From: a virus
Length of the DNA: 64,000 bases
IMG/VR virus record: IMGVR_UViG_3300042535_000023
Location: 1-64,000 of that record
Direction: 5' to 3' (one strand)
Shown: positions 1 to 28,844 of the stretch, piece after piece
How the letters are laid out: each line of letters starts with the position of its first letter
Numbering within the stretch: position 1 is the first letter of the stretch
Made by a program: the position numbers and the translations under genes
Notes under the pieces: generated by a model
The model's input: only the letters and a program-made list of their open reading frames with translations
What the model was told of the DNA's origin: nothing
Databases searched by the model: none

Positions 1-182
1 GATTTTTTAATTTCTTTAATGGCTTCATTTAAATCACCTGTTAAATCATCTTTAACTTCATACAGCTCATCAGAAAGTTTATCCACACTTTCATCTAGTT
101 TAACTAAAGAGTTAAGAACATGTTGGTACCAAGTGCGTCTTAATACATCAACTTCGGAGTTGTCTTTGGCTTCGTCTGTCAA
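1..182 (-). CDS. Partial hypothetical coiled-coil protein running off the left edge
   Basis: Read manually: TTG start at 182 after a GGGGA RBS, open to position 1 (MTDEAKDNSEVDVLRRTWYQHVLNSLVKLDESVDKLSDEL...); heptad-like composition. Confidence 0.6.
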   Translation of the reverse strand, partial: MTDEAKDNSEVDVLRRTWYQHVLNSLVKLDESVDKLSDELYEVKDDLTGDLNEAIKEIKK

Positions 183-186
183 TTTA

Positions 187-384
187 TTAATCCCCTGGTG
201 TTAATTTATTTCCACAAAAAGGACAAAAATTAATGCTTACGCCATAATTGTGTATTTGATGGTGGCTACGTTCTTCAGTCAATTCGATCCAGGAAATTAC
301 CCAGCCATAAGTTTCATGCCATTTAAAAATACTTGGATTACTATCTTTAATTCCTAACCAATCCTCACAATCACAAAATACCAT
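187..384 (-). CDS. Small Cys-containing hypothetical protein
   Basis: 65 aa, CxC near the N-terminus and C-terminal INFCPFCG typical of small phage Zn-binding proteins. Confidence 0.7.
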   Translation of the reverse strand: MVFCDCEDWLGIKDSNPSIFKWHETYGWVISWIELTEERSHHQIHNYGVSINFCPFCGNKLTPGD

Positions 385-401
385 AAAACACCAGAAAGTA
401 T

Positions 402-421
402 AGGGGCCTTGGTAGGCCCCT
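402..421 (-). terminator. Probable intrinsic terminator hairpin
   Basis: Perfect 8-bp stem AGGGGCCT-tggt-AGGCCCCT just downstream of ORF 436..921; only a weak U-tract follows. Confidence 0.65.
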
Positions 422-435
422 TACCTTTAATTTAA

Positions 436-921
436 TTATAGATTACGTGTTCCTGGAGGAGTATAACCGAACGGACCAGCAGTCCTGCCACCGAAAGTAG
501 ACCAACCCTCAGCTGGGAACTGTTTCGGGACGTTTGTGCCATCGTCAACAGAGTATCGGGTGTCAGTAACATCAAACTTAGGTGCGTCTGTGGCACTATT
601 TGACCTACGATTGCCCATCCCCATAATAGCAAATTCGTCATTACGGGTTCTCTTAACAGTTGAACCCCATACGAAAGGATTCTCAGAGTAGTCCCCTTCC
701 ATAACAAAAGGAGGAACTCCTGGATTCATAAGGGTATCTTTATCGGCGAAGCCCAAACTTGTTTGTGTATAGTCAGCAGAGCTTCTTACTCCACCAACCA
801 AAGCACCAAAATTAGACATACGCATACCAAAATTCCTACCTTGAGCTGTGATACCACCAGTCATCGTGTCGCCCAAACCAGTATGATTGATTTGAAAATT
901 ATCAAAATTATATACCGCCAT
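436..921 (-). CDS. Gly-rich hypothetical protein, possibly an abundant virion protein
   Basis: 161 aa, AGAGGAG RBS, own promoter and terminator; no family recognised. Confidence 0.75.
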   Translation of the reverse strand: MAVYNFDNFQINHTGLGDTMTGGITAQGRNFGMRMSNFGALVGGVRSSADYTQTSLGFADKDTLMNPGVPPFVMEGDYSENPFVWGSTVKRTRNDEFAIMGMGNRRSNSATDAPKFDVTDTRYSVDDGTNVPKQFPAEGWSTFGGRTAGPFGYTPPGTRNL

Positions 922-974
922 AGTTAATCTCCTCTTTTAATTTTTATAAGTTAAGTTACAAAACCTTTACTTAT

Positions 975-1003
975 ATTATAGGACACAAAATCAGATTTGT
1001 TAA
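975..1003 (-). promoter_or_regulatory. Sigma70-like promoter
   Basis: TTAACA-N17-TATAAT on the minus strand upstream of ORF 436..921. Confidence 0.6.
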
Positions 1004-1013
1004 ATTTTTATTT

Positions 1014-1304
1014 TTAAATTTCTTCTATTCCTAATTCATCCTGAATTATTTGTGCCATTAGAAATGGGTGCTCAACAAATAGACTTCTTTTCTTCTCTGA
1101 ATAATACTTAATCATATCATTGATTTTCTCATGTATTTCATCCTCAATTTCTTGATCGACAGTCAAGTTAATTACTTTCTTGTTTAAGTCAATTTGCTTT
1201 ACTTCACCGCCAGCACCATCTACAAGCTCGTGGATTTCATTAAGCATTTTTGAATCAATTTTTTCATAAAGAACCCTCAATCTTTCTTGCATATTTATCC
1301 TCAC
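1014..1304 (-). CDS. Hypothetical protein
   Basis: 96 aa ORF, ATGA overlap with upstream gene. Confidence 0.7.
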   Translation of the reverse strand: MRINMQERLRVLYEKIDSKMLNEIHELVDGAGGEVKQIDLNKKVINLTVDQEIEDEIHEKINDMIKYYSEKKRSLFVEHPFLMAQIIQDELGIEEI

Positions 1305-1537
1305 TCTATTTCATTTTTTAAAATTAAGGCCCATGAAACGTCTTCATTTTGGGTATTAGTTGTTAAGGTAATGCTCTCTCTATCATTGCACATAGGACAC
1401 TGTAGCTCTAAAATAATATTTGCACTTTCTTTCATCGGGCGAAAAAAACATCGCCCTATAGTGCCACAATCACATTTGTAGGAAATACTTGTCATATTAT
1501 TTTGTAGTATTTGCATTATTTTCCCCCAACATCGCAT
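1301..1537 (-). CDS. Small zinc-ribbon protein
   Basis: CDCG ... CPMC; true start probably the second Met (1516). Confidence 0.65.
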   Translation of the reverse strand: MRCWGKIMQILQNNMTSISYKCDCGTIGRCFFRPMKESANIILELQCPMCNDRESITLTTNTQNEDVSWALILKNEIE

Positions 1538-2469
1538 TTTAATTCATTTAAGGTGCATCCAGGTAATTGATGAACTTCGTGATGGCAGTTAACGCATAGG
1601 GTTATGCCGTTGTCCACATCACAACTTTCTATGGGATTGTTAATTACTGGGTCGATGTGGTGGGCGTGAAGTTCCGTTTCAATGTTGCTCTCCTTATTTA
1701 TACCACATTTTTGGCAGGTCCAATTATCCCTTTCTAAAACCATCTTTCTAAATTGAGGTTGCATCTCACGGGAGGTTGCTGGGGCGTAGCCTTCTGGCCA
1801 CTCTGTTTTCCAAAAAATTGGGCACGCTTGTTTACAACCATCAGAACAATAAAATCTGGCCTGGCCGGCGCCGATAACACCCTCTATAGCTCTTATACGA
1901 TTTCTAACATGGGTTTGTTTTGGTACTAATATTTTATTACAATACAAACAATTTACCCCAAGTAAATATAAGTCGCCCTGTTGTATAATATGAACCTGCT
2001 CATACTTTTCAAGTTGATGTGCGTAGGTTTTATATAAAGGTAGATTTAATTTTTTAACTCCACCCTTATATGTAGGACTTCTTTCTCCAAATTTACTTTT
2101 CCAATAACAAACCGGGCACCCGTGGTTATTTATAAAAGTATCCCAAGCTATACTATGAATATTACTACATTTTTTACACCTGTATTCTAATTTTGTTTTA
2201 CTATTAATATACTCTGTGGAAAGTAACTCTAAATTCTTTTCAAAAAATTTTTGTTTAATAAAAATTAAAGTCGGTTTAACATCCTCATTATAACAATAAA
2301 AACACCCAGTATCCTTTTTAATATTATTAAAACTCATAGAGTGGCTATGCCCTCTATCACAAATAAAATCTAATTTAATATCACTACTAACATATTCTTT
2401 AGAAAGTAGTTTCCACCCTTTCTTTTCAAACTTCCCCTTTACAAACTCATATGTCAATTTTTTGCCCAT
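1516..2469 (-). CDS. Free-standing HNH homing endonuclease with N-terminal Zn-binding repeats
   Basis: C-terminal VLERDNWTCQKCG...HAHHI...NGITLCVNCHHEVH; two N-terminal LLSxEY...C..H...GCxxC repeats. Confidence 0.85.
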   Translation of the reverse strand: MGKKLTYEFVKGKFEKKGWKLLSKEYVSSDIKLDFICDRGHSHSMSFNNIKKDTGCFYCYNEDVKPTLIFIKQKFFEKNLELLSTEYINSKTKLEYRCKKCSNIHSIAWDTFINNHGCPVCYWKSKFGERSPTYKGGVKKLNLPLYKTYAHQLEKYEQVHIIQQGDLYLLGVNCLYCNKILVPKQTHVRNRIRAIEGVIGAGQARFYCSDGCKQACPIFWKTEWPEGYAPATSREMQPQFRKMVLERDNWTCQKCGINKESNIETELHAHHIDPVINNPIESCDVDNGITLCVNCHHEVHQLPGCTLNELKCDVGGK

Positions 2470-2481
2470 AATATCTCCAAC

Positions 2482-3732
2482 TTAAAGGTCAAGTCTAAGC
2501 CTCATCATTCTAGGAAAACGCATTCTCCCATTATTTCCAAATTTTTGGTGCCTTATCTCCACAATTTTATCAATCAAATCATTTTTATCTTTATAAGTTC
2601 TTCTAAATTTTAAATCAAAGCCTGATCCTACTTTACATTCTATCCCGTTATTTTGCTCAACAACTAAAGCCAGTAACATTTCCTCAGTAAACATCCTACC
2701 ATTTTCTATCACAGGGAAATTTCCTACCACAATATTTTTTATAACACAGTCCGACTCTATTTCCTCAGAGTTGTAATTAAGGTTCCTTTTTAACTTTACT
2801 ATAGCATCCGAACGTTTGAAGTCATAGGATTTCTTGGGATCGCGTAGCATGCATCCTTCATATCCCATATCAAAATAATCACTCAGAACTTCATAAACAT
2901 GCTCATTACTTATGACTCTTTGTTCCACAGGTTTTATAAACTTTGTTTCTTCAATAGTCCAATTAGCTACTACTATTGATTTATTTTTCTGAGATAAGAA
3001 GTCTTCTGCTTGCCCAACTACAAATACGTGGTATTCAATACCTTCGGCATCTCCAGACGTAAAACTCATTACCGGACCTTGAATATCTTCAAACTTTAGC
3101 CCGTGTTTGTAGAGCTCGCCATCAAAGAATGTATATCCATACTTATTATAAAGAAATTCTAAATCTTCTTTAATATAATCTACCGTAACAAACTCATGGC
3201 CCTTTCTTGATAACATTTTCCAACTTCCATCCAATCTTAAAGCAATATTTCTAAGACCATCGAGCTTAGGGGACACTATCCACTTAGAATTCTTATATTT
3301 TTTATCTGGTGAATAGGTGTTTGCCAGCTGCACTTCAAAAATTGGAAAAATTCCTGGGTATGCTTCTAAAATTAGTTTGGAACTTATACCGCTCTGCCAA
3401 CTTTTATTAAGGATACCAACTACTAAATCTTGTGATCCCTTATCAAGTAAGGCCAACAGTTCTAAAACCCTACTCTTATTCTGCTTTGGTGATAAACAGC
3501 CCAAGCAGTCTACTATTACTGAAGTTACTTTATTATAAATTTCTTCGAAGCTAAAAGGTCCTGGTTCAGGAATATCTTGCTCTTTAATTTTAATATGATA
3601 CATAGCAAAAGGGTTGTACGTGCTCTCAATTACCCATCTCAACATATCACTATCATGACTCAGCAGTATAGCTTGCTTTTCAGCAGGCTTAGACGTGCCT
3701 TTTATTTCTTTTAATAGTGTTGATAAACTCAT
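2482..3732 (-). CDS. lig: ATP-dependent DNA ligase
   Basis: Motifs SPKLDGLR (adenylated Lys), FDGELY, YEGCMLR, KLK, KVGSGF, RFPR. Confidence 0.95.
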   Translation of the reverse strand: MSLSTLLKEIKGTSKPAEKQAILLSHDSDMLRWVIESTYNPFAMYHIKIKEQDIPEPGPFSFEEIYNKVTSVIVDCLGCLSPKQNKSRVLELLALLDKGSQDLVVGILNKSWQSGISSKLILEAYPGIFPIFEVQLANTYSPDKKYKNSKWIVSPKLDGLRNIALRLDGSWKMLSRKGHEFVTVDYIKEDLEFLYNKYGYTFFDGELYKHGLKFEDIQGPVMSFTSGDAEGIEYHVFVVGQAEDFLSQKNKSIVVANWTIEETKFIKPVEQRVISNEHVYEVLSDYFDMGYEGCMLRDPKKSYDFKRSDAIVKLKRNLNYNSEEIESDCVIKNIVVGNFPVIENGRMFTEEMLLALVVEQNNGIECKVGSGFDLKFRRTYKDKNDLIDKIVEIRHQKFGNNGRMRFPRMMRLRLDL

Positions 3733-3884
3733 TTTTTAAGTTCCTCATATCTTTTATAAATTGCTCTACGAAAATCCATATAATATCTGTCAATTAAGTA
3801 TTCAGGGTTTTCCATAACCAGGGTCAACAACCTATCTGAATCCATCTCACCTATCCATTCTATAAAATCGTCGTCATCACTCAT
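3729..3884 (-). CDS. Small hypothetical protein (51 aa), absent from the ORF track
   Basis: Read manually: MSDDDDFIEWIGEMDSDRLL...; GGAGG RBS; ATGA overlaps at both ends fill the gap exactly. Confidence 0.7.
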   Translation of the reverse strand: MSDDDDFIEWIGEMDSDRLLTLVMENPEYLIDRYYMDFRRAIYKRYEELKK

Positions 3885-4309
3885 TTAATCACCTCCAAAG
3901 TATCCCTTCTTCTCCAAATTGGTTTTATTTCTTCTAACTCTTCTGACGGAGGTGGCGGAGTATATGATTCCCTAATTGGCTCCCTACCTGCAGGCTCTAT
4001 TTCTTCCCTACTAAATAGATTTATAAACTTTTTACAGTCGCTACAATACACATCGTATATACTTGTCGTATGATATACACCAACCTCACGTGGATAGCCT
4101 ATAGGAACCCAATCTTTATGTATGCATGTCGTATCACCCACCATTACCGAAGAATCCCAAGGCTTTATACCTCTACTTTCTTCTTCGGGAGATACTAATC
4201 TACCAACTAAATTATCACATCCTCCAAAATGGCCACACTTTTTACAAATCCAACAACTGTGACAGCCTTCTTTGCTGTACTCTTTTTCTGGCTCTTTACA
4301 TTGGCACAT
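3881..4309 (-). CDS. Cys-rich hypothetical protein
   Basis: 142 aa with several CxC/CxxC motifs. Confidence 0.65.
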   Translation of the reverse strand: MCQCKEPEKEYSKEGCHSCWICKKCGHFGGCDNLVGRLVSPEEESRGIKPWDSSVMVGDTTCIHKDWVPIGYPREVGVYHTTSIYDVYCSDCKKFINLFSREEIEPAGREPIRESYTPPPPSEELEEIKPIWRRRDTLEVIK

Positions 4310-4325
4310 TTTTTATAGCCTCAAA

Positions 4326-4529
4326 CTAAAATTTAGTAATAGAATTATATTCTTCTTTAACAGCTTTAACAGCCTTTTTTAGTTCCTCGAATGTTAAAAT
4401 TATTTCAGTCCCACCGTATCCATACCCCTGTCCTGCAACAAGTAAAGATATACCAACAGTTCTATCTTTTCCATCTTGAACACATACTATCTCTTGGTCT
4501 ACTATTGAATAATCGCTAAATATATCCAT
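4326..4529 (-). CDS. Hypothetical protein
   Basis: 67 aa, GGAG RBS. Confidence 0.6.
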   Translation of the reverse strand: MDIFSDYSIVDQEIVCVQDGKDRTVGISLLVAGQGYGYGGTEIILTFEELKKAVKAVKEEYNSITKF

Positions 4530-4540
4530 AATTAAATCTC

Positions 4541-4876
4541 CTATACTAAAATTTTATGTAAAAAATATTTCGCGCTATAAAGGGATAACAAAAACTTATC
4601 GTTCCATTTAATAGTAACTCCTATTGTAACACGCCTATACTTTAATGTCAAGTAAATTAATATGCTGGTAATAATAACACAAGTTATATTGGTAATAAAT
4701 ACTGGTAAGTCTTTGATATAGTAACCGTAGTATGTATACCATAACTGGCCATGCAACACTATTAACCACATAATTAAACTTACTTCTTTGCTGGTTTTAC
4801 TTTTTATTAGCTTGTATATTTGGGGACAGCCAGATAAGGCCATACTAATTCCTACAAGTAGCATCCATGTTTTCAT
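4541..4876 (-). CDS. SemiSWEET / PQ-loop membrane transporter
   Basis: Three hydrophobic helices, PQ motif (GCPQIYK), KxSKEVS, conserved W-xx-YG and P-xxxx-N. Confidence 0.85.
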   Translation of the reverse strand: MKTWMLLVGISMALSGCPQIYKLIKSKTSKEVSLIMWLIVLHGQLWYTYYGYYIKDLPVFITNITCVIITSILIYLTLKYRRVTIGVTIKWNDKFLLSLYSAKYFLHKILV

Positions 4877-5064
4877 TTTAATTCTCCATCATCTTTTATA
4901 ACCCCAGACCTTGTTAAAATAAAACTTGCGTCAAATATACCTCGTTCAAAATCTTCTACTTCCCACACCTTATCTTCAAGACTTTGTGGAGTTTCTTCCC
5001 CACGAAGTAAAGCTCCAGCAGCATAATCATAACCAGCTATGTATTGTTTTGAGTTGGCATTCAT
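4873..5064 (-). CDS. Hypothetical protein
   Basis: 63 aa, ATGA-coupled to neighbours. Confidence 0.6.
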   Translation of the reverse strand: MNANSKQYIAGYDYAAGALLRGEETPQSLEDKVWEVEDFERGIFDASFILTRSGVIKDDGELK

Positions 5065-5246
5065 TTTGTTTTCCTCATATAATACATTAATGCTTCTGCG
5101 GCCAACAGTCTTTCATACTCAGTAAGAGTGACTGTAAAATCCTCATCCTTACCATATCTGTACAGTTTCTTCCAGGCAGAGTCTGCTGTATCAAGACGCT
5201 CTTTATGAAAATCTTCGCAATGCTTATGGTATTGTTCTGTATTCAT
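5061..5246 (-). CDS. Hypothetical protein
   Basis: 61 aa, tightly packed. Confidence 0.6.
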   Translation of the reverse strand: MNTEQYHKHCEDFHKERLDTADSAWKKLYRYGKDEDFTVTLTEYERLLAAEALMYYMRKTK

Positions 5247-5247
5247 T

Positions 5248-6024
5248 TTAGTTCCTCGATAAATTATAAAAATCTAAAATATTAACCATCACTATATTTT
5301 CTACTATATCATATTTTGGATGTTCTGTCAATGGTGAGTTTGTATTTGCATCTTCTAGCCCCGCGAAAAGTTTTTCCGCCTCGGACTTTACCTGTTCTAA
5401 AGTCCATAAACCATTCTTAACTTCAAGAAACTTCTGCGCGTCTGGCCTAAAAACTACAAGCTCGCCAGTCTTTAAGAACTCTATCCCCATAGTTAGGAGC
5501 CTAAGACAGTGGGCAGCGTTCTTTAAATCATAACCATATTTTTCTACTATGGCCTTACGCTTAGCTCCCATGTAGCCTTCGTAAACTTGTCCCTGAGACA
5601 TTTTCTTTAACTGAGAAAATGCGTAACCTGCAAAACTTTCGTAGGCTAATTTAGAAGAAAAGGCTTTTCTATTCCTAATCAATCTTTTACCAAATAGGGT
5701 TTGCATTAAGTAGTGCTCTTCATTAATCCATAACATACTCAAAACATTTGGGTTAGACTTGAGCAATAAATTAACAAACTTACGAAGTTCATAGGACACG
5801 GTATCAAATCTGCCAACAAACTTATCTATTGACTTATCATACCTTCTACCAGCTCCAAGGCCTACATAATACTTTAGGGGAGCTATATAAATGGACATAA
5901 TATCTATATCATCGATAGAATTTGGGTCTGGGTTATGCATGCCATGGGCTATACTCCCTCTATAGCCTGATAGAATAGTATTATCTGGAAACACTTCTGA
6001 TGGTATATCTTTTAATTCTAACAT
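5248..6024 (-). CDS. Pol-beta superfamily nucleotidyltransferase (RlaP/YcgL-like)
   Basis: GSIAHG...SIDDID, ELRKFVNLLLKSNPNVL, YDLKNAAHCLRLL. Confidence 0.85.
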   Translation of the reverse strand: MLELKDIPSEVFPDNTILSGYRGSIAHGMHNPDPNSIDDIDIMSIYIAPLKYYVGLGAGRRYDKSIDKFVGRFDTVSYELRKFVNLLLKSNPNVLSMLWINEEHYLMQTLFGKRLIRNRKAFSSKLAYESFAGYAFSQLKKMSQGQVYEGYMGAKRKAIVEKYGYDLKNAAHCLRLLTMGIEFLKTGELVVFRPDAQKFLEVKNGLWTLEQVKSEAEKLFAGLEDANTNSPLTEHPKYDIVENIVMVNILDFYNLSRN

Positions 6025-6034
6025 TTTAATCCTC

Positions 6035-6649
6035 CTAAATATATTCCTTTACCCCGCCAAAAGTTTTTCTATGCAAAGGACTTGGCCCATGAAGTGCTAT
6101 TGCAATTCTATGCTCTTTAGTCCCGTATCCGTGGTGTTTTTCTAATGAATACTTATCATATTTCTTAGCAAGATCTTCTATAATAGTGTCACGAGTTACC
6201 TTAGCCAATACACTTGCTGCTGCTATAGAAAGAACTAATGAATCCCCTTTAATAACTTGTTCCTGAGGAGCCTCAATATTTTCTAACAATACTGGCCCAT
6301 CTACAAAGACATAATCATATTGTTTAAGATCGTAAAGAGCTAACTTCATAGCTAATTTTGCAGCCTCACGTACATTAATCTCCTCTATAATCTTATTATC
6401 AATTATACCTATACCACAATCACAAATTGTTAAAATATCTTTTGCTAACTCCTTCCTTTTTTCGGCCGAAAGCTTTTTTGAGTCATTTACTCTACCCAAA
6501 AAAGCTTTAGCAGCATAGAAAGGTATATGAACTGCCGCGGCCACTATTGGGCCAAACAATGACCCTTCTCCAACACAATCAGTCCCAGCTACATACTTAT
6601 ACCCTTTACTTATAACTGCCTTCTCAAAATCATAAGAGGGATAATTCAT
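6035..6649 (-). CDS. rnhB: Ribonuclease HII-like protein with altered first catalytic motif
   Basis: GP(I)VAAAV, DSKKLS, VDG, KGD...IAAASVLAKVTRD, GYGT, HRKTF; DEVGRG is replaced by DCVGEG. Confidence 0.9.
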   Translation of the reverse strand: MNYPSYDFEKAVISKGYKYVAGTDCVGEGSLFGPIVAAAVHIPFYAAKAFLGRVNDSKKLSAEKRKELAKDILTICDCGIGIIDNKIIEEINVREAAKLAMKLALYDLKQYDYVFVDGPVLLENIEAPQEQVIKGDSLVLSIAAASVLAKVTRDTIIEDLAKKYDKYSLEKHHGYGTKEHRIAIALHGPSPLHRKTFGGVKEYI

Positions 6650-6676
6650 AAATTACTCCTTTTAAATACAAAAACT

Positions 6677-6766
6677 TATTAACAAATCACTTAAGTTGAC
6701 CGCGAGAAGCGCTGTTCAGTTTTCTGCCAAGCTGTGGGCGCGGCAACTTAGTTCTAAACGTTAATT
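6677..6766 (+). other. Solitary integron attC-like recombination site
   Basis: TATTAAC-AAATC-ACTTAAGT-TG-A-CCGCG...CGCGG-CA-ACTTAGT-TCTAAAC-GTTAATT: R''/L''/L'/R' layout with two extrahelical bases. Confidence 0.7.
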
Positions 6767-6773
6767 TAAAACA

Positions 6774-6802
6774 ATTATATCATATTTGTGAACCAAAGCC
6801 AA
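6774..6802 (-). promoter_or_regulatory. Sigma70-like promoter with extended -10
   Basis: TTGGCT-N17-TATAAT with TGn before the -10; would start transcription at the edge of the attC-like hairpin. Confidence 0.55.
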
Positions 6803-6849
6803 TAACTATCTGCAAATTTTTGTTAAATTCAAAAGTATATTATTGCACA

Positions 6850-7179
6850 TTACTCCGTAACTGTAGACCTAAATTGCGCCAAACAATCTGGGGCATCTAA
6901 AGAAACTGCTGGTGTAGCTACTCTATCTGCCATACGATCTGATTGTTTTGATAAAGCCTTCTTTAGTTTACTTACTGTTTTCTTACGTGTCCAATAATCA
7001 TCTGGTCGCATTGACGTTTGAACTTTTGGTCTTACGTTAACTTTTTCTGGCGCGAAAATAAAATCTTTACAAGCGCGAGACTTATTAACTTTAACTTTAC
7101 TATTTGGTTTAAGTCTACAAAAACTAGCATTTTCATAGGCACAAACTACACATTTAACTTTACCTTTAAAATCTTCCAT
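6850..7179 (-). CDS. Basic Cys-containing hypothetical protein
   Basis: Start moved to MEDFKG after AAGGAG RBS; CxxC...C...C. Confidence 0.65.
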   Translation of the reverse strand: MEDFKGKVKCVVCAYENASFCRLKPNSKVKVNKSRACKDFIFAPEKVNVRPKVQTSMRPDDYWTRKKTVSKLKKALSKQSDRMADRVATPAVSLDAPDCLAQFRSTVTE

Positions 7180-7192
7180 ATTAATTCTCCTT

Positions 7193-7378
7193 TTATTTAG
7201 CAACTATATTAAGCCAACACTCTTCTGGATGAAAATGGAGCCTTGTTAAATTAAGGCCCTCTAACTCTTTTTGAACTATAGGGAGCTGGACCATCTTCCA
7301 TCTGTTTCTTACCCAATCCTCACTTTCATCCGCTACGGAAACAATAAACTTATCATTTATAGACACCTTAATATCCAT
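7193..7378 (-). CDS. Hypothetical protein
   Basis: 61 aa, GAGGAG RBS. Confidence 0.6.
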   Translation of the reverse strand: MDIKVSINDKFIVSVADESEDWVRNRWKMVQLPIVQKELEGLNLTRLHFHPEECWLNIVAK

Positions 7379-7524
7379 TAATTCTCCTCATCATCATAAT
7401 CATCATCTTCTTCCATATCATCAAAGGATTCCCAACCACATCTCTTGCAACGAACGGCTTCCCACAAATCATTATCAACTACACTTAAACTAGGATTTCC
7501 ACACATTGGGCATTCTTCAAACAT
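7378..7524 (-). CDS. Zinc-ribbon microprotein with acidic tail (48 aa), absent from the ORF track
   Basis: Read manually: MFEECPMCG...RCKRCGWESFDDMEEDDDYDDEEN; GGAGG RBS. Confidence 0.75.
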   Translation of the reverse strand: MFEECPMCGNPSLSVVDNDLWEAVRCKRCGWESFDDMEEDDDYDDEEN

Positions 7525-7533
7525 AGTTACCTC

Positions 7534-8097
7534 CTATAATATCTCGTTCAAAGTTTTTATTTTTTTAACTCTCTTATCACTATACCAGATTCCCCAAGGT
7601 TTTGCAAGTAAAAAGTTTTGAGTTCCTGGGCTATGCTCCAACATACTTTCAATATTAGGAACATAATCATCTACAAATATATCTAAAGATAATTCTTTTC
7701 CTATTAGTCCTTTTGATTGCCCGCGAGAAATATGTGTAACACTATCAACTTTTAATTTATGCTTTTTAAGCCAAGCTTTAGTATTATTTTCTTCTCCTTG
7801 GGTGCGGGCAGTTACTATGTGTATACTATGCCCTCTTGATTTAAGTTCAGACAATGTCTTTTTTACGCCCACAAACGGTTTTGCTGACAACAAAAAGGAA
7901 GTATCTCTTGTTATAGCATCAAGGTATTCAGCTATATTTCTATTATGATATTTATTCTCTGTATAACTACACTCATAAAAATTGTAATTTTCAAAATCCT
8001 CTAAAGTTAGTTCTACCCCATAATCATTTCTTAATGAGGATAGGGCACTAGCCATTAAGGCGCAGCATACTTCATCCAAATCCAAACCTATATTCAT
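7534..8097 (-). CDS. HAD-family 5'(3')-deoxyribonucleotidase-like protein
   Basis: IGLDLDEV, IVTAR, K...IFVDD. Confidence 0.85.
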   Translation of the reverse strand: MNIGLDLDEVCCALMASALSSLRNDYGVELTLEDFENYNFYECSYTENKYHNRNIAEYLDAITRDTSFLLSAKPFVGVKKTLSELKSRGHSIHIVTARTQGEENNTKAWLKKHKLKVDSVTHISRGQSKGLIGKELSLDIFVDDYVPNIESMLEHSPGTQNFLLAKPWGIWYSDKRVKKIKTLNEIL

Positions 8098-8100
8098 ACT

Positions 8101-8316
8101 TTAATTTCCTATTAAATGCAGATACTGCTTCTCTTGTCGCTTGTTCTCCTCACTCATAGTAGGGTGTGAAGACATCACCCAACCATCCTTCTCTACTCCG
8201 GAAATAATTGACCAATCATCTTCAGAGATAATCTCATAATCACTATATCTACTATTAATTATTTCCATATCATCTGGGTACTTCTCGAGCATTTTCTTCA
8301 ATTCGGCCACATTCAT
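8101..8316 (-). CDS. Hypothetical phage protein
   Basis: 71 aa; MNVAELKKMLEKYPDDMEI is a common phage small-protein N-terminus. Confidence 0.7.
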   Translation of the reverse strand: MNVAELKKMLEKYPDDMEIINSRYSDYEIISEDDWSIISGVEKDGWVMSSHPTMSEENKRQEKQYLHLIGN

Positions 8317-8330
8317 ACTTTAATCTCCTA

Positions 8331-8501
8331 TTAATAAATACAATCACAGCGCATATAACCATAAACGTATCTGTCAATTATAGCCTCTGGTTTTGGTTTA
8401 TCGTAAATACGTTCCTTCCACTGATCAACTACTCCACAGTCAGGACACTCTTCGTAATGAAATAAATACCAATAAGACTTTTTTATTTTATTCTTTTTCA
8501 T
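8331..8501 (-). CDS. Small Zn-binding protein (56 aa), absent from the ORF track
   Basis: Read manually: MKKNKIKKSYWYLFHYEECPDCG...MRCDCIY; AAGGAG RBS. Confidence 0.65.
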   Translation of the reverse strand: MKKNKIKKSYWYLFHYEECPDCGVVDQWKERIYDKPKPEAIIDRYVYGYMRCDCIY

Positions 8502-8531
8502 ATTAATTCTCCTTATTTAATTATTTAATAC

Positions 8532-8559
8532 ATTATACCAAAAATTAAATAAAAGTCAA
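8532..8559 (-). promoter_or_regulatory. Sigma70-like promoter with extended -10
   Basis: TTGACT-N16-TATAAT with TGn; heads the small-gene cluster. Confidence 0.7.
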
Positions 8560-8560
8560 A

Positions 8561-9133
8561 CTATTTTATAATTATTGTTACTACAGCTGGCGAAGAGACT
8601 CCTTTGTTATTAGATGCTTTAAATTTAAAAGAGTCTATCATATTTGGCGGAGTATATCTATTAGTGTAATTAAAGTTCCCAGTAAAATTATCTAAAGTAA
8701 GCCTACCATATGGAGGAATAGTAACTAGTGAATATTTTGTAACGTCCCCGTTAGCAGTAAGTTTTCCAGAGACAGTTCCCTTTTTTAACACCGAAATACT
8801 TAAATCGTTGGCTACTGGTATGGTAGGTATGTCTGGAACAACGTATGTATAGTTGAAAGCATTGGAATGTGCAGATTCATTCCCAGCAATATCAACAGCA
8901 GTCAGGGTAAACTTATTAGTCCCTACAACTAAATCCACTGGACAGGCTAAATTCCTAGCCATAGGGTCTTTAGTTTCACACAGAATAGGATCCCCAGGCT
9001 TGGCCCAGTTATTATAAAGTCTAAATCCAGACACCCCTATTCCAGAATTATAATCCCAATTTATACTTACCGTTTTAGCATTTACTACAGCAGGTATAAG
9101 TATAAATAATAATAATTTTAAAATTGTTTTCAT
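8561..9133 (-). CDS. Exported protein: signal peptide + fibronectin type III-like + Ig/cadherin-like domain
   Basis: MKTILKLLLFILIPAVVNA signal; W...GFRLY...FTLTAVDIAGNES; PPYGRLTL...GNFNYT...DSFKFKA. Start reassigned to 9133 (AGAGG RBS). Confidence 0.8.
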   Translation of the reverse strand: MKTILKLLLFILIPAVVNAKTVSINWDYNSGIGVSGFRLYNNWAKPGDPILCETKDPMARNLACPVDLVVGTNKFTLTAVDIAGNESAHSNAFNYTYVVPDIPTIPVANDLSISVLKKGTVSGKLTANGDVTKYSLVTIPPYGRLTLDNFTGNFNYTNRYTPPNMIDSFKFKASNNKGVSSPAVVTIIIK

Positions 9134-9144
9134 ATTAACCTCTA

Positions 9145-9801
9145 TTATTTTATAGGTGTATAACCATATTGAGTTATTGTGCCCCAATCTATTGAGGCTG
9201 TAACTCGCTGCACCGTATCCAATGGATAAATTGGGGCCTGATTTATATAATACAAACGACTTTCCTTTTCAAATTTCTCTGTACATCTTACATTTTTAGG
9301 AAAGACTACCTCATCATTACCAAATACTATATTAAAAGCTTCTGATATGTCTAATAATACCTTTAGAGGATCTATTAATAAATCTTCGTACCTAACTAAA
9401 ATTATTTTCTTATATATCTCATTATTAGTTCCGTTTATAAAAGGTAAGTGGCCTCTATATAAGTCGTTATACTTAATAAAAATTTTTTCTGGTGTATCAT
9501 CTTCTACTATAAAATCATGTTTGTTATCTACAAGCCAGTTTAATATAGAAGTGTACCATGTATATGGATTTTTTATTATAACTATACAATACACATTTGA
9601 TTCCAAAGCCTTACGTGCTAATGCGCTCCTTGGATCATCTTTAAATAAATCAAACCATTCTGGCATATCTATATTAATAGGCCCATGCTTCCAGCCAAAC
9701 TCATGCGTTAGTACATCAACATCACAGAAATTACGTAATATAATGTTGGCTAGGTAAGTTGTACCGGTACGCTGTATTCCAAATATCTTTATATAATCCA
9801 T
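9145..9801 (-). CDS. Sulfotransferase-fold protein
   Basis: 5'-PSB loop GIQRTGTTY, 3'-PB IIKNPYTWYTS, VRYEDL. Confidence 0.8.
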   Translation of the reverse strand: MDYIKIFGIQRTGTTYLANIILRNFCDVDVLTHEFGWKHGPINIDMPEWFDLFKDDPRSALARKALESNVYCIVIIKNPYTWYTSILNWLVDNKHDFIVEDDTPEKIFIKYNDLYRGHLPFINGTNNEIYKKIILVRYEDLLIDPLKVLLDISEAFNIVFGNDEVVFPKNVRCTEKFEKESRLYYINQAPIYPLDTVQRVTASIDWGTITQYGYTPIK

Positions 9802-9810
9802 GATGGTTCC

Positions 9811-12321
9811 TTATCCACATTTAGAATATGCACATTCAGAGCAGGAAATGCATCCCTCTTTTCTTATTAAAAGGCCTTCGCCACATTGTGGGCATTTTTG
9901 TTCCTTGCTATATTTATACTCTTTAACATAAGAGCTAAGAACTCTTGCTATAACTGTGGAGTAAGCTGTGATATCGCCGTTAGCTTTCTTCAACTGATCT
10001 ACTATGAACTCCAAAGGTGTTCCATGACGCATAGCCAGCGATAGTAACCTTGTAATGGAACGTTGTTCGCTATCCATAAGGGTGTGAGCTAAGTCTTTAT
10101 ATTCTATTTCTTGATTTCTAACCATAATCTCAAGTGAATATTTTCCACCATCTCGTTTAATAATCTTTCCAGACTTACAAGTTTTAGGAATATATAAACC
10201 ACTATCATCATTAACTTGCCCGCAGAACAGTTCATATGGCTGATTTTCTAAAAGACCTACTAAAACTAACCAAGCTTGTCCTTTAATAGAACAGTGGTGA
10301 ATATTGCACGAAAGCTCATTTAATCTTTTTGGTGCACACACTGGAGTAATAAATTTTGGTCTATTATCTTTACATAACTGTGTCTTACCGGCCCCCTCAA
10401 ACTTAGCCTTATTAGTAATAGGATCTTCAAAAATAAGGATGCCTTGACGGGAACCATCTCGATAAACAGATACTGCCCTAACGTCATTCTTATAGGCCTG
10501 CATATAAATATTCTCAACATCCTCTATTGTAGCTGATGCTGGTAAATTATAGGTGCAAGAAATAGAGGCATCCATCCATTTATAGACAGCGCTCATAAGC
10601 TTAATCTTTTGCATAGGATTAATTTCATGAGCTGGCTTAAAAAATCCAGCAGGTATATATTTATTAATTATCTCTATCAAAGCTTTACCAATCTTACCAT
10701 CCTCGTCCTGAATTGAGCCTTGAAAACTACTCATTACCTCATAGTCATTGGAGGCCTTATCAATCTTATTCAAAATATATTCCAAAAGTCTTTGAGGAAT
10801 AGTAAAGTAATAAATATAATTACCCTTATCTATTGCACGAGTTCTGCGCCAGTAGTAAAGTCCAATTACAGGCTCTATTCCTGAAGAAATACAAGGCGAT
10901 GGAAATATAGATGACAAAGACCCCGCAGGAGCAATACTCATATGTGCCATATTACGCATAGTTTTAATAGCTGAAGCGTCACCATTATAGAACTCATTAA
11001 CTATATTTCTAAAATAAGTTGTTCCCATAAAAACAGTTTTATCTTCAACCAGCTCGAACGCTGGAGCGCTACCTTTCTCCAAACCCAATGCTACAGAAGT
11101 CCTGAATACAATAGAAGCATATATTTTCATAAAATTTTCTACAGCTTTTACGGCATCATCAGAATCATAAGCTACGTCCTGCTTTAATAACCAACCATGA
11201 ACATTGGTTATACCCATACCTACTTCACGTAACTGCTCAATGATCCAACGTTGCTGAGATAGCGGGCTTAAATTCTTATCTAGTTCATAAGCTACAACAT
11301 TATCAGCCATCCTTACTATAGCAGGAACTATTTCATTAAGTTGCTCTACATACTCTTTTGGCGCCGTCGAAAAATGCTCCATATTTAAAGAAGAGAGATT
11401 GCAAACTGAGTAGGGTGCCATAAACTTTTCACTGCATGCATTCGAAGAATGAGGTAAAAAGCGGTCATCATTAAAATGATCTGCTATTGCCTTATACATC
11501 ACACTATTCTGAAGAAGATTTCTATACTGAATACCAGGCTCTGCTGTTTTCCAAGCCCGATCCGCTATAAGCCTAAATAATTTTTTGGCTTTAATTGTTT
11601 TCTTAATAACTTCTCCAGAATCTCTAACTGTAAAACTCATTTCCCAATCAGCATCTTTTTCTACAGCTTCCATAAAATCGTTGGTAATTTGGACTGAGAT
11701 ATTGGCATTGTTAATCTTGGTAATATCATCTTTACAGGTAATAAACTCCTCAATATCTGGATGACTGATAATTAAAGACTCAAGAAGTGCTGGCTTACGT
11801 CCTTGCTGACCTACGTAATCACCGATTCTATTAAGCTTATCCATCCATGGAATTACGCCTGTGGATTCAATAGCCGCGTTACCTAACTTGCTACCTCGTG
11901 GGCGTAGTTTTGAAAAATCTATACCGATCCCTTGTCGGTATGCAGCGCACTTCATCACATCATATTCGCACTGAGCAATAGCTTCTAGAGTATCATCACC
12001 TAAAGGGATAGTAGTGCAGTTCATAGTAGAACTTTTTCTGCCTAAACCTATACTGGATAAGATGCTACCACCAGGTCTGAACCAGCCATTCCACATAAGA
12101 GTGAACCACGCAGCGGTACAGTTATCTTGTGACTCTTGGCTAAGTTCATAAACAGATAAGCCTTTGGCTACCCTATAGAATACCTCGGCAGGAGTTTCCT
12201 TAGTTCCATCAGTTTTAATCATAGCATACTTAGTATTGAAAATGTCTACGGCGTACTTATCACCTGAAAAGTAACCTTCTGCTGTTACAGATTTAACATC
12301 CTCAAAATTAATAATTTCCAT
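9811..12321 (-). CDS. nrdJ: Class II (B12-dependent) ribonucleotide reductase
   Basis: GIGIDFSKLRPRG, NANISV, AEPG, SNACSE, CNLSSLN, SIAPAGS, SSGIEP, YRDGSR; C-terminal TSCPD-like domain and CPQCG...CxxC...SKC; no beta subunit nearby. Confidence 0.92.
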   Translation of the reverse strand: MEIINFEDVKSVTAEGYFSGDKYAVDIFNTKYAMIKTDGTKETPAEVFYRVAKGLSVYELSQESQDNCTAAWFTLMWNGWFRPGGSILSSIGLGRKSSTMNCTTIPLGDDTLEAIAQCEYDVMKCAAYRQGIGIDFSKLRPRGSKLGNAAIESTGVIPWMDKLNRIGDYVGQQGRKPALLESLIISHPDIEEFITCKDDITKINNANISVQITNDFMEAVEKDADWEMSFTVRDSGEVIKKTIKAKKLFRLIADRAWKTAEPGIQYRNLLQNSVMYKAIADHFNDDRFLPHSSNACSEKFMAPYSVCNLSSLNMEHFSTAPKEYVEQLNEIVPAIVRMADNVVAYELDKNLSPLSQQRWIIEQLREVGMGITNVHGWLLKQDVAYDSDDAVKAVENFMKIYASIVFRTSVALGLEKGSAPAFELVEDKTVFMGTTYFRNIVNEFYNGDASAIKTMRNMAHMSIAPAGSLSSIFPSPCISSGIEPVIGLYYWRRTRAIDKGNYIYYFTIPQRLLEYILNKIDKASNDYEVMSSFQGSIQDEDGKIGKALIEIINKYIPAGFFKPAHEINPMQKIKLMSAVYKWMDASISCTYNLPASATIEDVENIYMQAYKNDVRAVSVYRDGSRQGILIFEDPITNKAKFEGAGKTQLCKDNRPKFITPVCAPKRLNELSCNIHHCSIKGQAWLVLVGLLENQPYELFCGQVNDDSGLYIPKTCKSGKIIKRDGGKYSLEIMVRNQEIEYKDLAHTLMDSEQRSITRLLSLAMRHGTPLEFIVDQLKKANGDITAYSTVIARVLSSYVKEYKYSKEQKCPQCGEGLLIRKEGCISCSECAYSKCG

Positions 12322-12412
12322 CTTTAACCCCCTTCAAAAATTTCATGGCGCGCTGAAAAGCGTCCCAATCTCTAATGTTTAATATAGTGTATTTAGCAAA
12401 TGAAAGTTCCAT
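12308..12412 (-). CDS. Possible 34-aa microprotein upstream of nrdJ
   Basis: ATG directly after the previous stop (TAA ATG), MELSFAKYTILNIRDWDAFQRAMKFLKGVKDGNY; overlaps the nrdJ start. Confidence 0.4.
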   Translation of the reverse strand: MELSFAKYTILNIRDWDAFQRAMKFLKGVKDGNY

Positions 12413-12901
12413 TTAATCTTCTCCAGCAGCTACAACTTTGGTATTCATTTCAAAATCCTCATCAAAAATACTTTTATGTGATTTAACAAAAACACCTACA
12501 AAGGACTCATCGTTAGATAAATAAATTGGCATATTCCATTGCTTAGTAAGAACCCCTTCTTCATCAACATCTTCATGATTGGGCAGTGCAAAAGCTACAA
12601 TCTCTCTCCGCATCTCTGATGTATAACTACCATCTGATTCTATTTCTAATCTTAACTGTCTGTCTGCCTCAAAACTTTTCTTGGCGGACGAAGTAAGTAT
12701 GGACATTTCTTGTTTACCTAATACTAATACCCTATCATCACAATCTGGATAATTTTTTTTATAAAATAATAATTGAGCATTTATTTCACTTGTCAACAAA
12801 GAAGCTTCTGCTTCAAATCTATCTTTAGGGTCAGAACTATCAATAATATCTTCTAACCTTTTGTCCATCATATTACATCGTTTAATATTTTCCATATTCA
12901 A
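12413..12901 (-). CDS. Hypothetical acidic protein
   Basis: 162 aa, AAGGAG RBS. Confidence 0.7.
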   Translation of the reverse strand: MNMENIKRCNMMDKRLEDIIDSSDPKDRFEAEASLLTSEINAQLLFYKKNYPDCDDRVLVLGKQEMSILTSSAKKSFEADRQLRLEIESDGSYTSEMRREIVAFALPNHEDVDEEGVLTKQWNMPIYLSNDESFVGVFVKSHKSIFDEDFEMNTKVVAAGED

Positions 12902-12916
12902 TTCTCCTTTAAAATT

Positions 12917-13354
12917 TTATCGACCTGAACTCCCAAATCCATTAGTTCCTCTAACTGTTTCTTCTAAATTAGTAGTCTCAATAAAGTGTGCTGTATAAAC
13001 AGGACTAAACTTCATCTGTGCTACTCGCTCGCCCTTTTCAATATTAAGCTCTTCTTGCCCGAGGTTGATAAGTGCTACTTTAATATTGTTTCTATAATGA
13101 CTATCAATGGTGCCTGGTGAATTCACTACTGTAAGTCCTCGCTTCCATGCTTGTCCACTACGTGGCCTAATTTGAGCCTCAAAGCCCTCAGGCATGGCGA
13201 TTTGTAATCCTGTGTCTGCCAGGTAACGTTCCCCTGGTTTAATCGTGAAGGCCTCTACAGTGGCTAAATCACAACAAGCGTCTCCTGGGTAAGCGTAAGT
13301 TGGAACTACTGCGTCTTCATGCACCTTCTTTAAATAAACTCTGATGTCGTTCAT
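12917..13354 (-). CDS. dut: Trimeric dUTPase
   Basis: Motifs DL, IRPRSG, NSPGTIDSHYR, ERVAQ, RGTNGFGSSG. Confidence 0.97.
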   Translation of the reverse strand: MNDIRVYLKKVHEDAVVPTYAYPGDACCDLATVEAFTIKPGERYLADTGLQIAMPEGFEAQIRPRSGQAWKRGLTVVNSPGTIDSHYRNNIKVALINLGQEELNIEKGERVAQMKFSPVYTAHFIETTNLEETVRGTNGFGSSGR

Positions 13355-13365
13355 ATTTGATTCTC

Positions 13366-15273
13366 CTATTTAATTATTCCATTGCATTTAATACAAGTTA
13401 AATCCTTTCCTCTAAACTCAAATTCTATTCCTCCACATTTTCCACCTTCTACATCATAGTCACATTTTTCCTTCATCCAACAAGGCGAAATTAAAGCGGT
13501 AGTTTCCATAACAATATGATCAAAATAATAACCGAAACCTTTAATAATAGATTCTTCTACTATTTTTGCTACCTCATAACGTTTTTCATAGATTGTCTGT
13601 ATAATCAATTCGTCATGGACTGTAAGAATTAACTCCGCATCATAATCCAATTGTTCGAGGGCTTCAACTACATACACCATGGCCTTCTTAATAGTGTCAG
13701 CGTTGGACCCCTGAATAGGTGCATTCTTAGCCTGCCTCTCTATACCCCTGGATATCTTTTTATAATCTGGAGATGACGGATAAGGAACATTATAAAATCT
13801 TTTTCTACCAGAAATTGATCTACTATAACCTAACCTTACAGCGTCCCTGCCAGATTTAGTTAAATATTCATAAATGAGGGGATACGCTTGGAAGTAGCCG
13901 TTGATTACTTTATCGGCCTCCTTCTCTGATATTTTTAATCTCCTTGATAGTCCATATTTAGACATACCATATACGATTCCGAACCCAATGGCCTTAGCAG
14001 GCTTCCTATATTTATTGTTGGCAGCTTCTTCCATAGATACCTTATATACTTCAGAGGCTGTCTTTGTATGTATATCCACCCCATGGTCGTAACAGTATTT
14101 AAATGCTGGCTCTTTGGATAAATTACCAAGTATACGAAGCTCAGCACCTGACATGTCTGCTGTGATTAATACGTACCCATCTTTGGCTATAAACCTACTC
14201 CTAAACTTTTGTTTCCCAGGAATATTCTGGAGGTTCGGGTTATTGCTTGACATGCGCCCCGTGCTGACCATCTGCTTAAAACTTGTGTGTAATCGACCAG
14301 TTACTGGATTTATCTGAGCAAGCAGTGTTTCCCCATAAGTAGATAATAACTTTTGTGTTTTCCTATAATCTAACAACGCATCTATAGCAGGATGGCCGGC
14401 ATAGTCTTCAAGAACCTCTACACCAGTACTCTCTAGATTAAATCCAAACTTATTCAGCTCTACTAAAAGCTGTTTGTTGCTATTAATATTTACTTTTGAT
14501 ACACCAAACAAAGTGGTTTGGTCTGCTTTAGTAGAGAGAATACTATGCAATGTTTTCTCATGCTCAAACTGCTCCTTCTCTACATCCGCCATTAATTCTC
14601 TCCACCTTTCTACATCCATAGTGATGCCATTTAATTCCATTTCACAAAGAGCTTTTACAAAATCAAACTCAAGTTGAACAACATCAGCAAGCCCATGCTT
14701 TTCTATCTCTGAAGCTTGCATATCTCTAATCATAGTTAAAATAGTAACATCTACTGCAGCATAATCTAATTGGTATTGTTGAAATTCTTGATAGTAATCC
14801 TCAAAAGTTCCTCGTGGCTCCTTATCCATCTCTAATCCAAGATACTTTTTAACAAGTAGTTGTAAGTTAGCTTTAGTAAATAGGCCCAAATTTAATAACT
14901 GCTCCACAAGCATTGTATCATAGATATTCTGAATATAATACCCAGCGTTAGCTTTAATCATTTCCATATCATAAGAAGCATTCTGTAATAACTTCTTTAT
15001 CTTTTTGTTAGTTAAAATATCTTTAAAGAATAGTAAATCTACTTCGCTCTTACTAATATCTTTTCTAACATCGAATATACATACTCTTCCTTCCGCGCCA
15101 AATTGCAATAATACTACCTTTGAGGTATAAGGATCAAGGCCTGTGCCCTCAGTGTCTACTTCAAACTCTGATAATGAAGAAAAATACTCTAAAGCTTCAG
15201 TAGCTTCATCAACGGTTCTAATGTATTCATAGGTTGGTATTGGTAAAAATCTTCTGCTCTCAACTAATTCCAT
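13366..15273 (-). CDS. polA: Family A DNA polymerase with 3'-5' exonuclease, no 5'-3' exonuclease
   Basis: DTEGTGL (ExoI), YAAVD (ExoIII), TGRMSSNNPNLQNIP, ADMSGAELRIL (motif A), RKPAKAIGFGIVYG (motif B), VHDEL (motif C). Confidence 0.96.
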   Translation of the reverse strand: MELVESRRFLPIPTYEYIRTVDEATEALEYFSSLSEFEVDTEGTGLDPYTSKVVLLQFGAEGRVCIFDVRKDISKSEVDLLFFKDILTNKKIKKLLQNASYDMEMIKANAGYYIQNIYDTMLVEQLLNLGLFTKANLQLLVKKYLGLEMDKEPRGTFEDYYQEFQQYQLDYAAVDVTILTMIRDMQASEIEKHGLADVVQLEFDFVKALCEMELNGITMDVERWRELMADVEKEQFEHEKTLHSILSTKADQTTLFGVSKVNINSNKQLLVELNKFGFNLESTGVEVLEDYAGHPAIDALLDYRKTQKLLSTYGETLLAQINPVTGRLHTSFKQMVSTGRMSSNNPNLQNIPGKQKFRSRFIAKDGYVLITADMSGAELRILGNLSKEPAFKYCYDHGVDIHTKTASEVYKVSMEEAANNKYRKPAKAIGFGIVYGMSKYGLSRRLKISEKEADKVINGYFQAYPLIYEYLTKSGRDAVRLGYSRSISGRKRFYNVPYPSSPDYKKISRGIERQAKNAPIQGSNADTIKKAMVYVVEALEQLDYDAELILTVHDELIIQTIYEKRYEVAKIVEESIIKGFGYYFDHIVMETTALISPCWMKEKCDYDVEGGKCGGIEFEFRGKDLTCIKCNGIIK

Positions 15274-15277
15274 TTAA

Positions 15278-16357: not shown

Positions 16358-16372
16358 AGTTAATTCTCCAAA

Positions 16373-19895: not shown

Positions 19896-19897
19896 AC

Positions 19898-28721: not shown

Positions 28722-28762
28722 ATGTAATCCTCCTTAATTCAGATTAATGTTCTACTACACTT

Positions 28763-28834
28763 TAGCGGAGGGTAGATTCGAACTACCGTGCTCAAGTTTA
28801 TGGGACTTGGGAGAAACCCCTTCTCTACTCCGCA
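28763..28834 (-). tRNA. tRNA with CAT anticodon (Met, initiator-like but atypical); CCA not encoded
   Basis: Cloverleaf: T-GCGGAG/CTCCGC-T acceptor, GAGA/TCTC D-stem, CAAGT-CCCATAA-ACTTG anticodon arm, GGTAG-TTCGAAT-CTACC T-arm. Confidence 0.88.
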
Positions 28835-28844
28835 ACAAAACTTT

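Follow-up and report, generated by a model that had tools for sequence, protein, structure and literature searches.

A solitary attC-type site in an uncultivated jumbo-type phage, probably the relic of an integron gene cassette

A 90-nt element at positions 6677–6766 of the 64-kb stretch of phage DNA analysed here (the window) is, by structure and by descent, probably an integron-type attC site that entered with a gene cassette and is now a solitary relic. The window covers positions 1–64,000 of an IMG/VR virus record of 82,191 bases (G000), for which CheckV gives a completeness of 31% and whose base composition is 34.6% G+C. Of the ORFs kept by a simple caller, 80 of 82 are on the minus strand, and the record encodes a replication set of the large-phage type that includes a DNA polymerase, clamp loader, DnaB-like helicase, UvsX-like recombinase, ligase, and ribonucleotide reductase; G000 is an uncultivated jumbo-type phage. 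Similarity of the DNA polymerase identified the related records G001, G002 (268,764 bases, 100% complete), and G003, with G002 being the closest complete relative. The element lies in the intergenic gap at 6650–6849, one of few such gaps in G000, and the following features are found in or beside this gap:

6035–6649, minus strand: RNase HII gene (rnhB; PF01351, 5.5e-33), its start 27 nt from the R'' box of the element
6656–6661, minus strand: rnhB ribosome-binding sequence AAGGAG, read from the sequence
6774–6802, minus strand: sigma-70-like promoter site TTGGCT-17-TATAAT with a TG extension, a consensus match only
6850–7203, minus strand: 117-aa ORF with no assigned function, upstream of the element, with homologues in G001–G003 at 33–43% identity

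A separate tblastn search gave 41% identity for the 117-aa ORF in G002 and 28% in G003. The RNase HII gene ends 10 nt ahead of the next gene's start, its stop codon being overlapped by the ribosome-binding sequence of that gene, and homologues that are 46–49% identical occur in G001–G003. Given this tight coupling and the presence of homologues in related phages, RNase HII does not resemble imported cargo. No hairpin like the 6677–6766 element is present upstream of RNase HII in G001–G003, and none of the RNase HII relatives of approximately 30% identity in viral and metagenome contigs has a comparable upstream hairpin. Searches of GenBank phages by blastn with the locus and with a G+C-rich island of G002 (described below) returned zero matches, and the best tblastn matches of RNase HII in the same set were at most 43% identical.

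Gene order within the module differs between G000 and G002, and the identities are uneven (85% for RlaP, 48% for RNase HII). The RlaP-family protein (window 5248–6024 versus G002 265022–265786) is 85% identical, with neighbours at 41–53% and in a different order; the uneven identity and changed order around this gene point to probable local mosaicism. Several other features of the record were observed. Three adjoining paralogous minus-strand ORFs (301, 313, and 294 aa) at window 46243–48999 contain direct repeats of 50–132 nt at a spacing of ~900–1850 nt. At 34329–34848 of G000, 520 nt carry no ORF of at least 50 aa by the simple caller, the longest such gap in the record, which includes a stable hairpin at 34582–34651 (minus strand). 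A free-standing HNH endonuclease gene adjoins an ATP-dependent DNA ligase gene at window 1516–2469, and a single tRNA-Met lies at window 28762–28835.

The element itself was divided into the parts expected of an attC site:

6677–6766, plus strand: attC-type site, the only match of covariance model R1 in the window (30.3 bits; 28.7 bits with model R2)
6677–6683, plus strand: R'' box TATTAAC, pairing with R' at 6 of 7 positions
6684–6688, plus strand: unpaired central spacer of the left arm, AAATC (5 nt), read from the sequence
6689–6699, plus strand: L'' region ACT-T-AAGTTG-A, with T6692 and A6699 unpaired and a 6-bp stem between them, from the folds and the model alignment
6700–6743, plus strand: upper stem CCGCG/CGCGG and variable terminal structure, with CCGCG at 6700–6704 pairing with CGCGG at 6739–6743
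6744–6752, plus strand: L' region CAACTT-AGT, pairing with L''
6753–6759, plus strand: unpaired central spacer of the right arm, TCTAAAC (7 nt), with one inserted base in the model alignment
6760–6766, plus strand: R' box GTTAATT, with the crossover expected between G6760 and T6761, as taken from PMC5027507 and PMC9892861

The initial annotation of this DNA had proposed just such an anatomy, and every part that it described (R'', the spacers, L'', L', R', and the extra bases) is present where it had placed it. At 90 nt, the element falls inside the range of 57–141 bp given for attC sites in PMC5027507, where spacers are described as usually 5–6 nt long. Folded as single-stranded DNA, the top strand reaches -14.1 kcal/mol (6 of 200 shuffles equal or better) and the bottom strand -14.5 kcal/mol (4 of 200), and both folds display the R box, the spacer, and two single-base bulges. 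The minus-strand RNA fold has an energy of -27.5 kcal/mol (z -3.2; equalled by 0 of 200 shuffles), and a 70-nt segment over the element ranks third in stability among the 16,426 segments of the 82-kb record. The G+C fraction rises to as much as 0.55 at 6700–6759, compared with 0.345 for G000. The recombinogenic bottom strand of the site is expected to be the minus strand of the window. In the mechanism that we propose, this strand, when single-stranded, folds into a hairpin of the kind recognised by integron integrases, in which the R box carries the AAC/GTT crossover triplet, the central spacer is unpaired, and two extrahelical bases lie 6 bp apart in the L box.

Covariance models for attC sites were home-made, and the E-values that they return are rough. 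The IntI1 coding region of plasmid R100 served as the query for the collection of 80 genome loci around IntI1 homologues, and another 20 stretches adjoining integron integrases in other genomes were added; none of the conclusions depends on genomes flagged as unpublished among these. Sixteen non-redundant bacterial attC sites, chosen by their canonical fold signature after the candidate had been seen, formed the seed of the first model (R1), which was built with R-box and L-box pairs from the aligned sites. On 978 kb of bacterial integron loci, R1 identified 168 sites at E ≤ 1e-3, with scores of 28.1–76.1 bits. For every one of the best 150 of these 168, the strand agreed with that expected from the direction of intI, and the model therefore reads site polarity. 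When R1 was run on both strands of the 64-kb window at E ≤ 10, it returned one match, at 6677–6766 on the plus strand and over the full length of the model (30.3 bits, E 1.7e-5), which lies at the low end of the bacterial range. Scoring with an attC covariance model had been suggested by the initial annotation, and R1 selects exactly the proposed element and nothing else in the window.

A second model (R2) was rebuilt from the best 150 R1 sites and scored the element at 28.7 bits (E 8.9e-5). With filters off, the next best R2 score in window positions 1–20000 was 7.1 bits, and the background in 40 kb of G002 did not exceed 8.2 bits, leaving a gap of 20 bits between the phage attC-like sites and the model background. 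Over 443 kb (G000 and all of G002 and G003) at E ≤ 10, R2 found four matches of 28.7–33.2 bits, all on the plus strand, and R1 returned the same four sites. In the reverse test, a sequence-only profile of the four phage sites was run on 1.26 Mb of integron loci, and known bacterial attC positions were among the top matches that were checked.

The window site was then compared with 137 distinct bacterial attC sites. The AAC of R'' is near-invariant in this set (137, 135, and 136 of 137), and both it and the GTT of R' are present and paired at 6677–6766; the AAC triplet is described as the only part conserved in all attC sites (PMC5027507). The left spacer is 5 nt long in all 137 bacterial sites, as it is in the window site, and it ends in C in 126 of them, as in AAATC. 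Also kept are the near-invariant T15, A18, G22, A23, and C24, as well as the C, T, and A at -22, -18, and -16. According to PMC5027507, the '' arm of an attC site carries two or three extrahelical bases, efficient recombination by IntI1 requires a 6-bp stem separating the first of them from the last, and as read on the bottom strand, G is the usual base at the first unpaired position and T is conserved at the last. The window site carries two extrahelical bases on this arm with the 6-bp stem AAGTTG/CAACTT between them, and the second of these is T on the bottom strand (top-strand A, found in 118 of 137). At the first position the bottom strand has A; the corresponding top-strand T, which the initial annotation had noted in place of the usual C, occurs in 3 of the 137 sites, compared with 113 for C, and an unpaired T occupies this position in two of the four phage sites. 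The R boxes, as also noted there, deviate from RYYYAAC/GTTRRRY outside the triplets, with 5 of 7 and 6 of 7 positions fitting. The bases at R'' positions 1–3 are seen in 7, 1, and 3 of the 137 sites, respectively, the A at position 2 thus in a single one, and no bacterial site in the set has a right spacer of 7 nt (6 nt in 119, 5 nt in 18). The window site has the structure required of an attC site and misses some of the usual base identities.

The three further matches are all located in G002:

G002 41515–41601, plus strand: attC-type site, R2 33.2 bits
G002 42825–42912, plus strand: attC-type site, R2 29.4 bits
G002 43133–43254, plus strand: attC-type site, R2 32.6 bits

This trio lies within 1.7 kb, in an island of 44–50% G+C between flanks of 29–35% (around L159:909–3700, G002 40.9–43.7 kb). 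The sites delimit a cassette encoding RtcB (PF01139, 1.5e-107) and a cassette with a 92-aa ORF that has a lipoprotein-like signal, and they begin 2–4 nt past the stop codons of the upstream genes. Besides the three attC sites and the RtcB and 92-aa lipoprotein-like cassettes, the island contains two small ORFs of 77 and 96 aa that match no family, and its left edge coincides with GTTAGCT. None of its genes has a homologue in G000 or G003.

All four phage sites align end to end, loops included, and the loop sequence of 6700–6743 is common to the G002 site at L159:2825–2912. A search of IMG/VR for the loop motif returned G002 and two GC-rich contigs; the latter are without an R2 score and were set aside as chance matches. 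A 23-nt exact stretch had no match in IMG/VR. In the L-box helix, 10 of 10 pairs are formed in all four sites and 6 of the 10 are changed on both sides; the covariation score was reached by 0 of 500 shuffles, and sliding the partners abolishes the pairing. Compensatory changes in four related sequences, a small number, support the structure, short of proof. The element could also be read as an imperfect palindrome arising by chance in AT-rich intergenic DNA, AAC and GTT triplets being common in AT-rich DNA and the promoter scan as a whole having given no excess over shuffles (81 versus 80.8), but the probability of this reading is close to negligible, as it is already contradicted by the model scores (E 1.7e-5 and 8.9e-5), the 20-bit gap to the background, and the homologous sister sites with their compensatory changes.

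Cassette recombination crosses over inside R', so that the bases past the R' G belong to the next cassette and match its own R''. In G002, R'' of each following site is complementary to R' of the preceding site at all four variable positions, in the one adjacent pair as in the other (GTTATGA/TCATAAC and GTTGGGC/GCCCAAC), whereas R'' fits the R' of its own site at only 1 of 4 and 0 of 4. Among 99 distinct adjacent pairs in bacterial arrays, R'' fits the preceding R' at 4 of 4 positions in 63 and its own R' in 15. On the strength of this match the G002 array looks like the product of an integron integrase, whether the assembly took place in the phage or, ahead of capture, in a bacterial integron.

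The complementarity between R'' and the preceding R' that marks cassette boundaries is found at the G002 sister sites and is lacking at the window site; it is a property of arrays and not of a single site. The partner junction GTTAATA (plus strand) is absent to the left of 6677–6766, the nearest copy being at 17529, and no candidate with one mismatch lies at a gene boundary. The window site is solitary, with no recognisable cassette start or left junction. We propose that the site most likely entered the jumbo-phage lineage with a gene cassette from a bacterial integron; G002 retains a cassette array whose three sites belong to this family of attC, and in G000 the site would have been left as a single attC without an integrase, the start of its cassette no longer recognisable. 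The initial annotation had offered three explanations, namely a cassette scar, a substrate for a host IntI, and a hairpin co-opted as a 5' leader of rnhB, and the cassette scar has become the best supported of these, with the G002 sister sites bounding cassettes by junctions of the integrase type.

Part of the window site has an exact copy elsewhere in the relative:

6680–6699, plus strand: 20-mer (end of R'', spacer, and L''), with an exact copy at G002:61955–61974

This copy is the sole other exact match of the 20-mer in IMG/VR. The flanks of the 20-mer at the window locus and at 61.9 kb of G002 do not align above shuffles, and the G002 locus gave no R2 match and has no scoring right arm. 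The simplest reading of the copy is a decayed sister site, and folded attC sites are described as readily deleted by replication slippage (10.1101/2022.09.11.507474). The surroundings of the copy hold other features. On the minus strand of L017:1508–2097 (G002 ~61.96–62.55 kb), a 53-aa frame overlaps a 152-aa frame without a start codon around TTGAAAAAC, which may reflect either a pseudogene or a frameshift, whether programmed or erroneous, and the 152-aa frame ends within the 20-mer. A tRNA cluster (Gln, Pro, Leu, and a fourth tRNA-like Rfam match; L017:439–1114) lies directly downstream of the 115-aa gene that comes after the 20-mer.

The distribution of the sites was examined in the wider clade. 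A three-polymerase alignment led to 16 further viral contigs, 14 of which were searched with R2 together with G001, leaving out L189 and L190. These 14 contigs and G001 gave no R2 match at E ≤ 0.01, and the same search picked up all four sites already known from G000 and G002, with none in G003. Sites of the attC type are therefore present in 2 of 18 DNA-polymerase-related records, most of which are fragments. This distribution agrees better with sporadic acquisition than with a regulatory element conserved among the phages, sporadic presence being expected of acquired DNA.

Several other identities were considered for the element. It has no second copy in G000 and is not a repeat, and a scan for tRNA and tmRNA found the tRNA-Met at 28762 alone. 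A mobile element of the Y1-transposase type was rejected, as no such transposase (IS200/IS605 or REP-associated) was found in G000, G002, or G003.

The sigma-70-like site at 6774–6802, which the initial annotation had named as a promoter, is present on the minus strand as a consensus match with a TG extension, and the element is located between it and the ribosome-binding site of rnhB. A transcript from the predicted promoter would start about 3 nt before the site, and in the predicted fold of this transcript the hairpin forms independently and leaves the ribosome-binding site free. A stem-loop at the 5' terminus can protect an mRNA, and we infer, solely from this predicted promoter, that the site may be transcribed from it as the 5'-terminal stem-loop of the rnhB mRNA. 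A different reading takes the element as a phage RNA element whose resemblance to attC arose by convergence or precedes an exaptation; it would be a 5'-terminal stem-loop that tunes or stabilises the mRNA of rnhB, a weak terminator, or a processing site, with no present role in DNA recombination. The promoter-like site that ends 7 nt before the element, the self-contained hairpin 3 nt from the predicted 5' end with the ribosome-binding site free, the start of the G002 sites 2–4 nt past upstream stop codons, and the weak terminators said in PMC9892861 to occur in attC sites are all consistent with such an element. Convergence, however, fails to explain the base-level match to the consensus positions of bacterial attC sites, and it leaves unexplained both the junction pattern between R' and the following R'' and the GC-rich island. 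The element is also missing upstream of RNase HII in G001–G003 and from 16 of the 18 related records; it is not among the 15 sites in window positions 1–20000 that resemble intrinsic terminators (a G+C-rich stem followed by a T run), and no Rfam family reaches its gathering score in the window, the three weak matches in 6500–7000 (E ≤ 10) all lying outside the element. We accordingly consider an RNA element of this kind quite improbable and retain the cassette relic as the preferred reading.

The initial annotation had reported that the window contains no integrase and that the genes adjoining the element run opposite to the cassette orientation. Both statements hold: none was found in the whole 82-kb record, G000–G003 contain no match to the TIGR02249 integron integrase or the PF00589 tyrosine recombinase, and the flanking genes are on the minus strand. 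The same orientation is seen at all four phage sites, where every adjoining gene is encoded opposite the attC top strand, which makes the recombinogenic bottom strand the sense strand for the phage genes. In bacterial inter-attC intervals, in contrast, the longest ORF is co-oriented with the sites in 88 of 93 cases by a longest-ORF heuristic. This inversion of genes relative to the phage sites is not predicted by the usual cassette model.

It is plausible that the window site would be a substrate for a host IntI, and we infer that such an enzyme may still be able to recombine it. A rival reading holds that the site is no relic but in use, in which case an SOS-induced IntI of the host would, during infection, recombine the attC sites of the phage among themselves, with cassettes of the host, or with co-infecting relatives. 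The phage would thereby gain and shuffle genes, and the inverted orientation would make the bottom strand the sense (non-template) strand, on which it could fold. The differing gene order near the site in G000 and G002 (RlaP 85%, RNase HII 48%), the exact 20-nt copy of the left arm at another G002 locus, the inverted adjoining genes at all four sites compared with 5 of 93 bacterial intervals, and the ability of IntI1 to recombine phage attC sites as reported in PMC9892861 are in line with present use. On the other side, the one DNA run that covers the region (contigs, probably from the source sample), no RNA run being listed for it, has 0 differences and no alternative joints, although variants could escape contigs; the sites occur in only 2 of 18 related records, and phage mosaicism by itself could account for the shuffled gene order. 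Taken together, these points make present use unlikely. There is a similarly small chance that the lineage keeps inverted attC sites as working points of entry and exchange by borrowing the stress-induced integrase of its host, with the G002 RtcB cassette as an example of a capture; if this were true, the phage genome would be an integrase-less cassette platform that reshuffles its own accessory genes.

Integron cassettes are a major means for bacteria to exchange accessory and resistance genes. Phages have been demonstrated as cassette carriers recently and rarely, and the present case, read as a cassette relic, adds a jumbo-phage lineage. It illustrates that a solitary site of the kind discarded by standard pipelines can be validated through an array in a relative, and the consistent inversion of genes versus sites departs from the usual cassette model. 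The four sites provide a concrete set for recombination assays.

Set against the attC sites of bacteria (59-base elements), the window site has the AAC/GTT boxes, the 5-nt left spacer, two unpaired '' arm bases 6 bp apart, the second of them T on the bottom strand, a length of 90 nt, and a bottom strand that folds slightly better than the top, and it scores with models built from bacterial sites. Unlike them, it has outer R-box bases off consensus, A instead of G as the first unpaired bottom-strand base, and a 7-nt right spacer; it is also AT-rich, is located in an integrase-less phage, and has inverted neighbour genes. T4-type phages reportedly carry promoter/stem-loop (PeSL) cassettes, in which an early-type promoter adjoins a stem-loop between genes. 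Set beside these by description, the window site is similar in combining a promoter with an intergenic stem-loop where gene order shuffles between relatives; to our knowledge, attC-specific features and a score with a bacterial model are not expected of PeSLs.

Single attC sites without an integrase have been named SALINs, 3,400 of which are reported in RefSeq bacterial genomes (10.1101/2022.09.11.507474). Cassette insertion at genomic GWT sites is shown in the same source, which proposes that SALINs originate by such insertion followed by possible decay of the site. The window site resembles a SALIN in being the one attC in an 82-kb record (31% complete) with no TIGR02249 or PF00589 match. 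It differs from SALINs, as described in bacterial genomes, in residing in a phage and in having neither a recognisable left junction nor a clearly imported gene. By default, IntegronFinder 2 reports clusters of at least two sites, and single sites can be true positives according to its description (PMC9024848).

The closest precedent comes from Qi et al. 2023 (PMC9892861), who screened 10,705 phage genomes for at least two sites within 3 kb. As reported there, carriers were rare (21 of 10,705 genomes), 17 attC clusters lacked an integrase, some of them in virulent phages, and five of six phage attC sites assayed were recombined by IntI1. The three-site cluster of G002 lies within that definition, and the window site shares with these clusters its location in a lytic-type phage genome without intI. 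Unlike them, it is single and would be dropped by that pipeline, and the clusters of PMC9892861 are mostly co-oriented arrays, whereas here the phage is an uncultivated jumbo phage and all of the cassette ORFs are inverted. Phage-borne attC clusters were thus already published in 2023, and the window site joins a known, rare kind.
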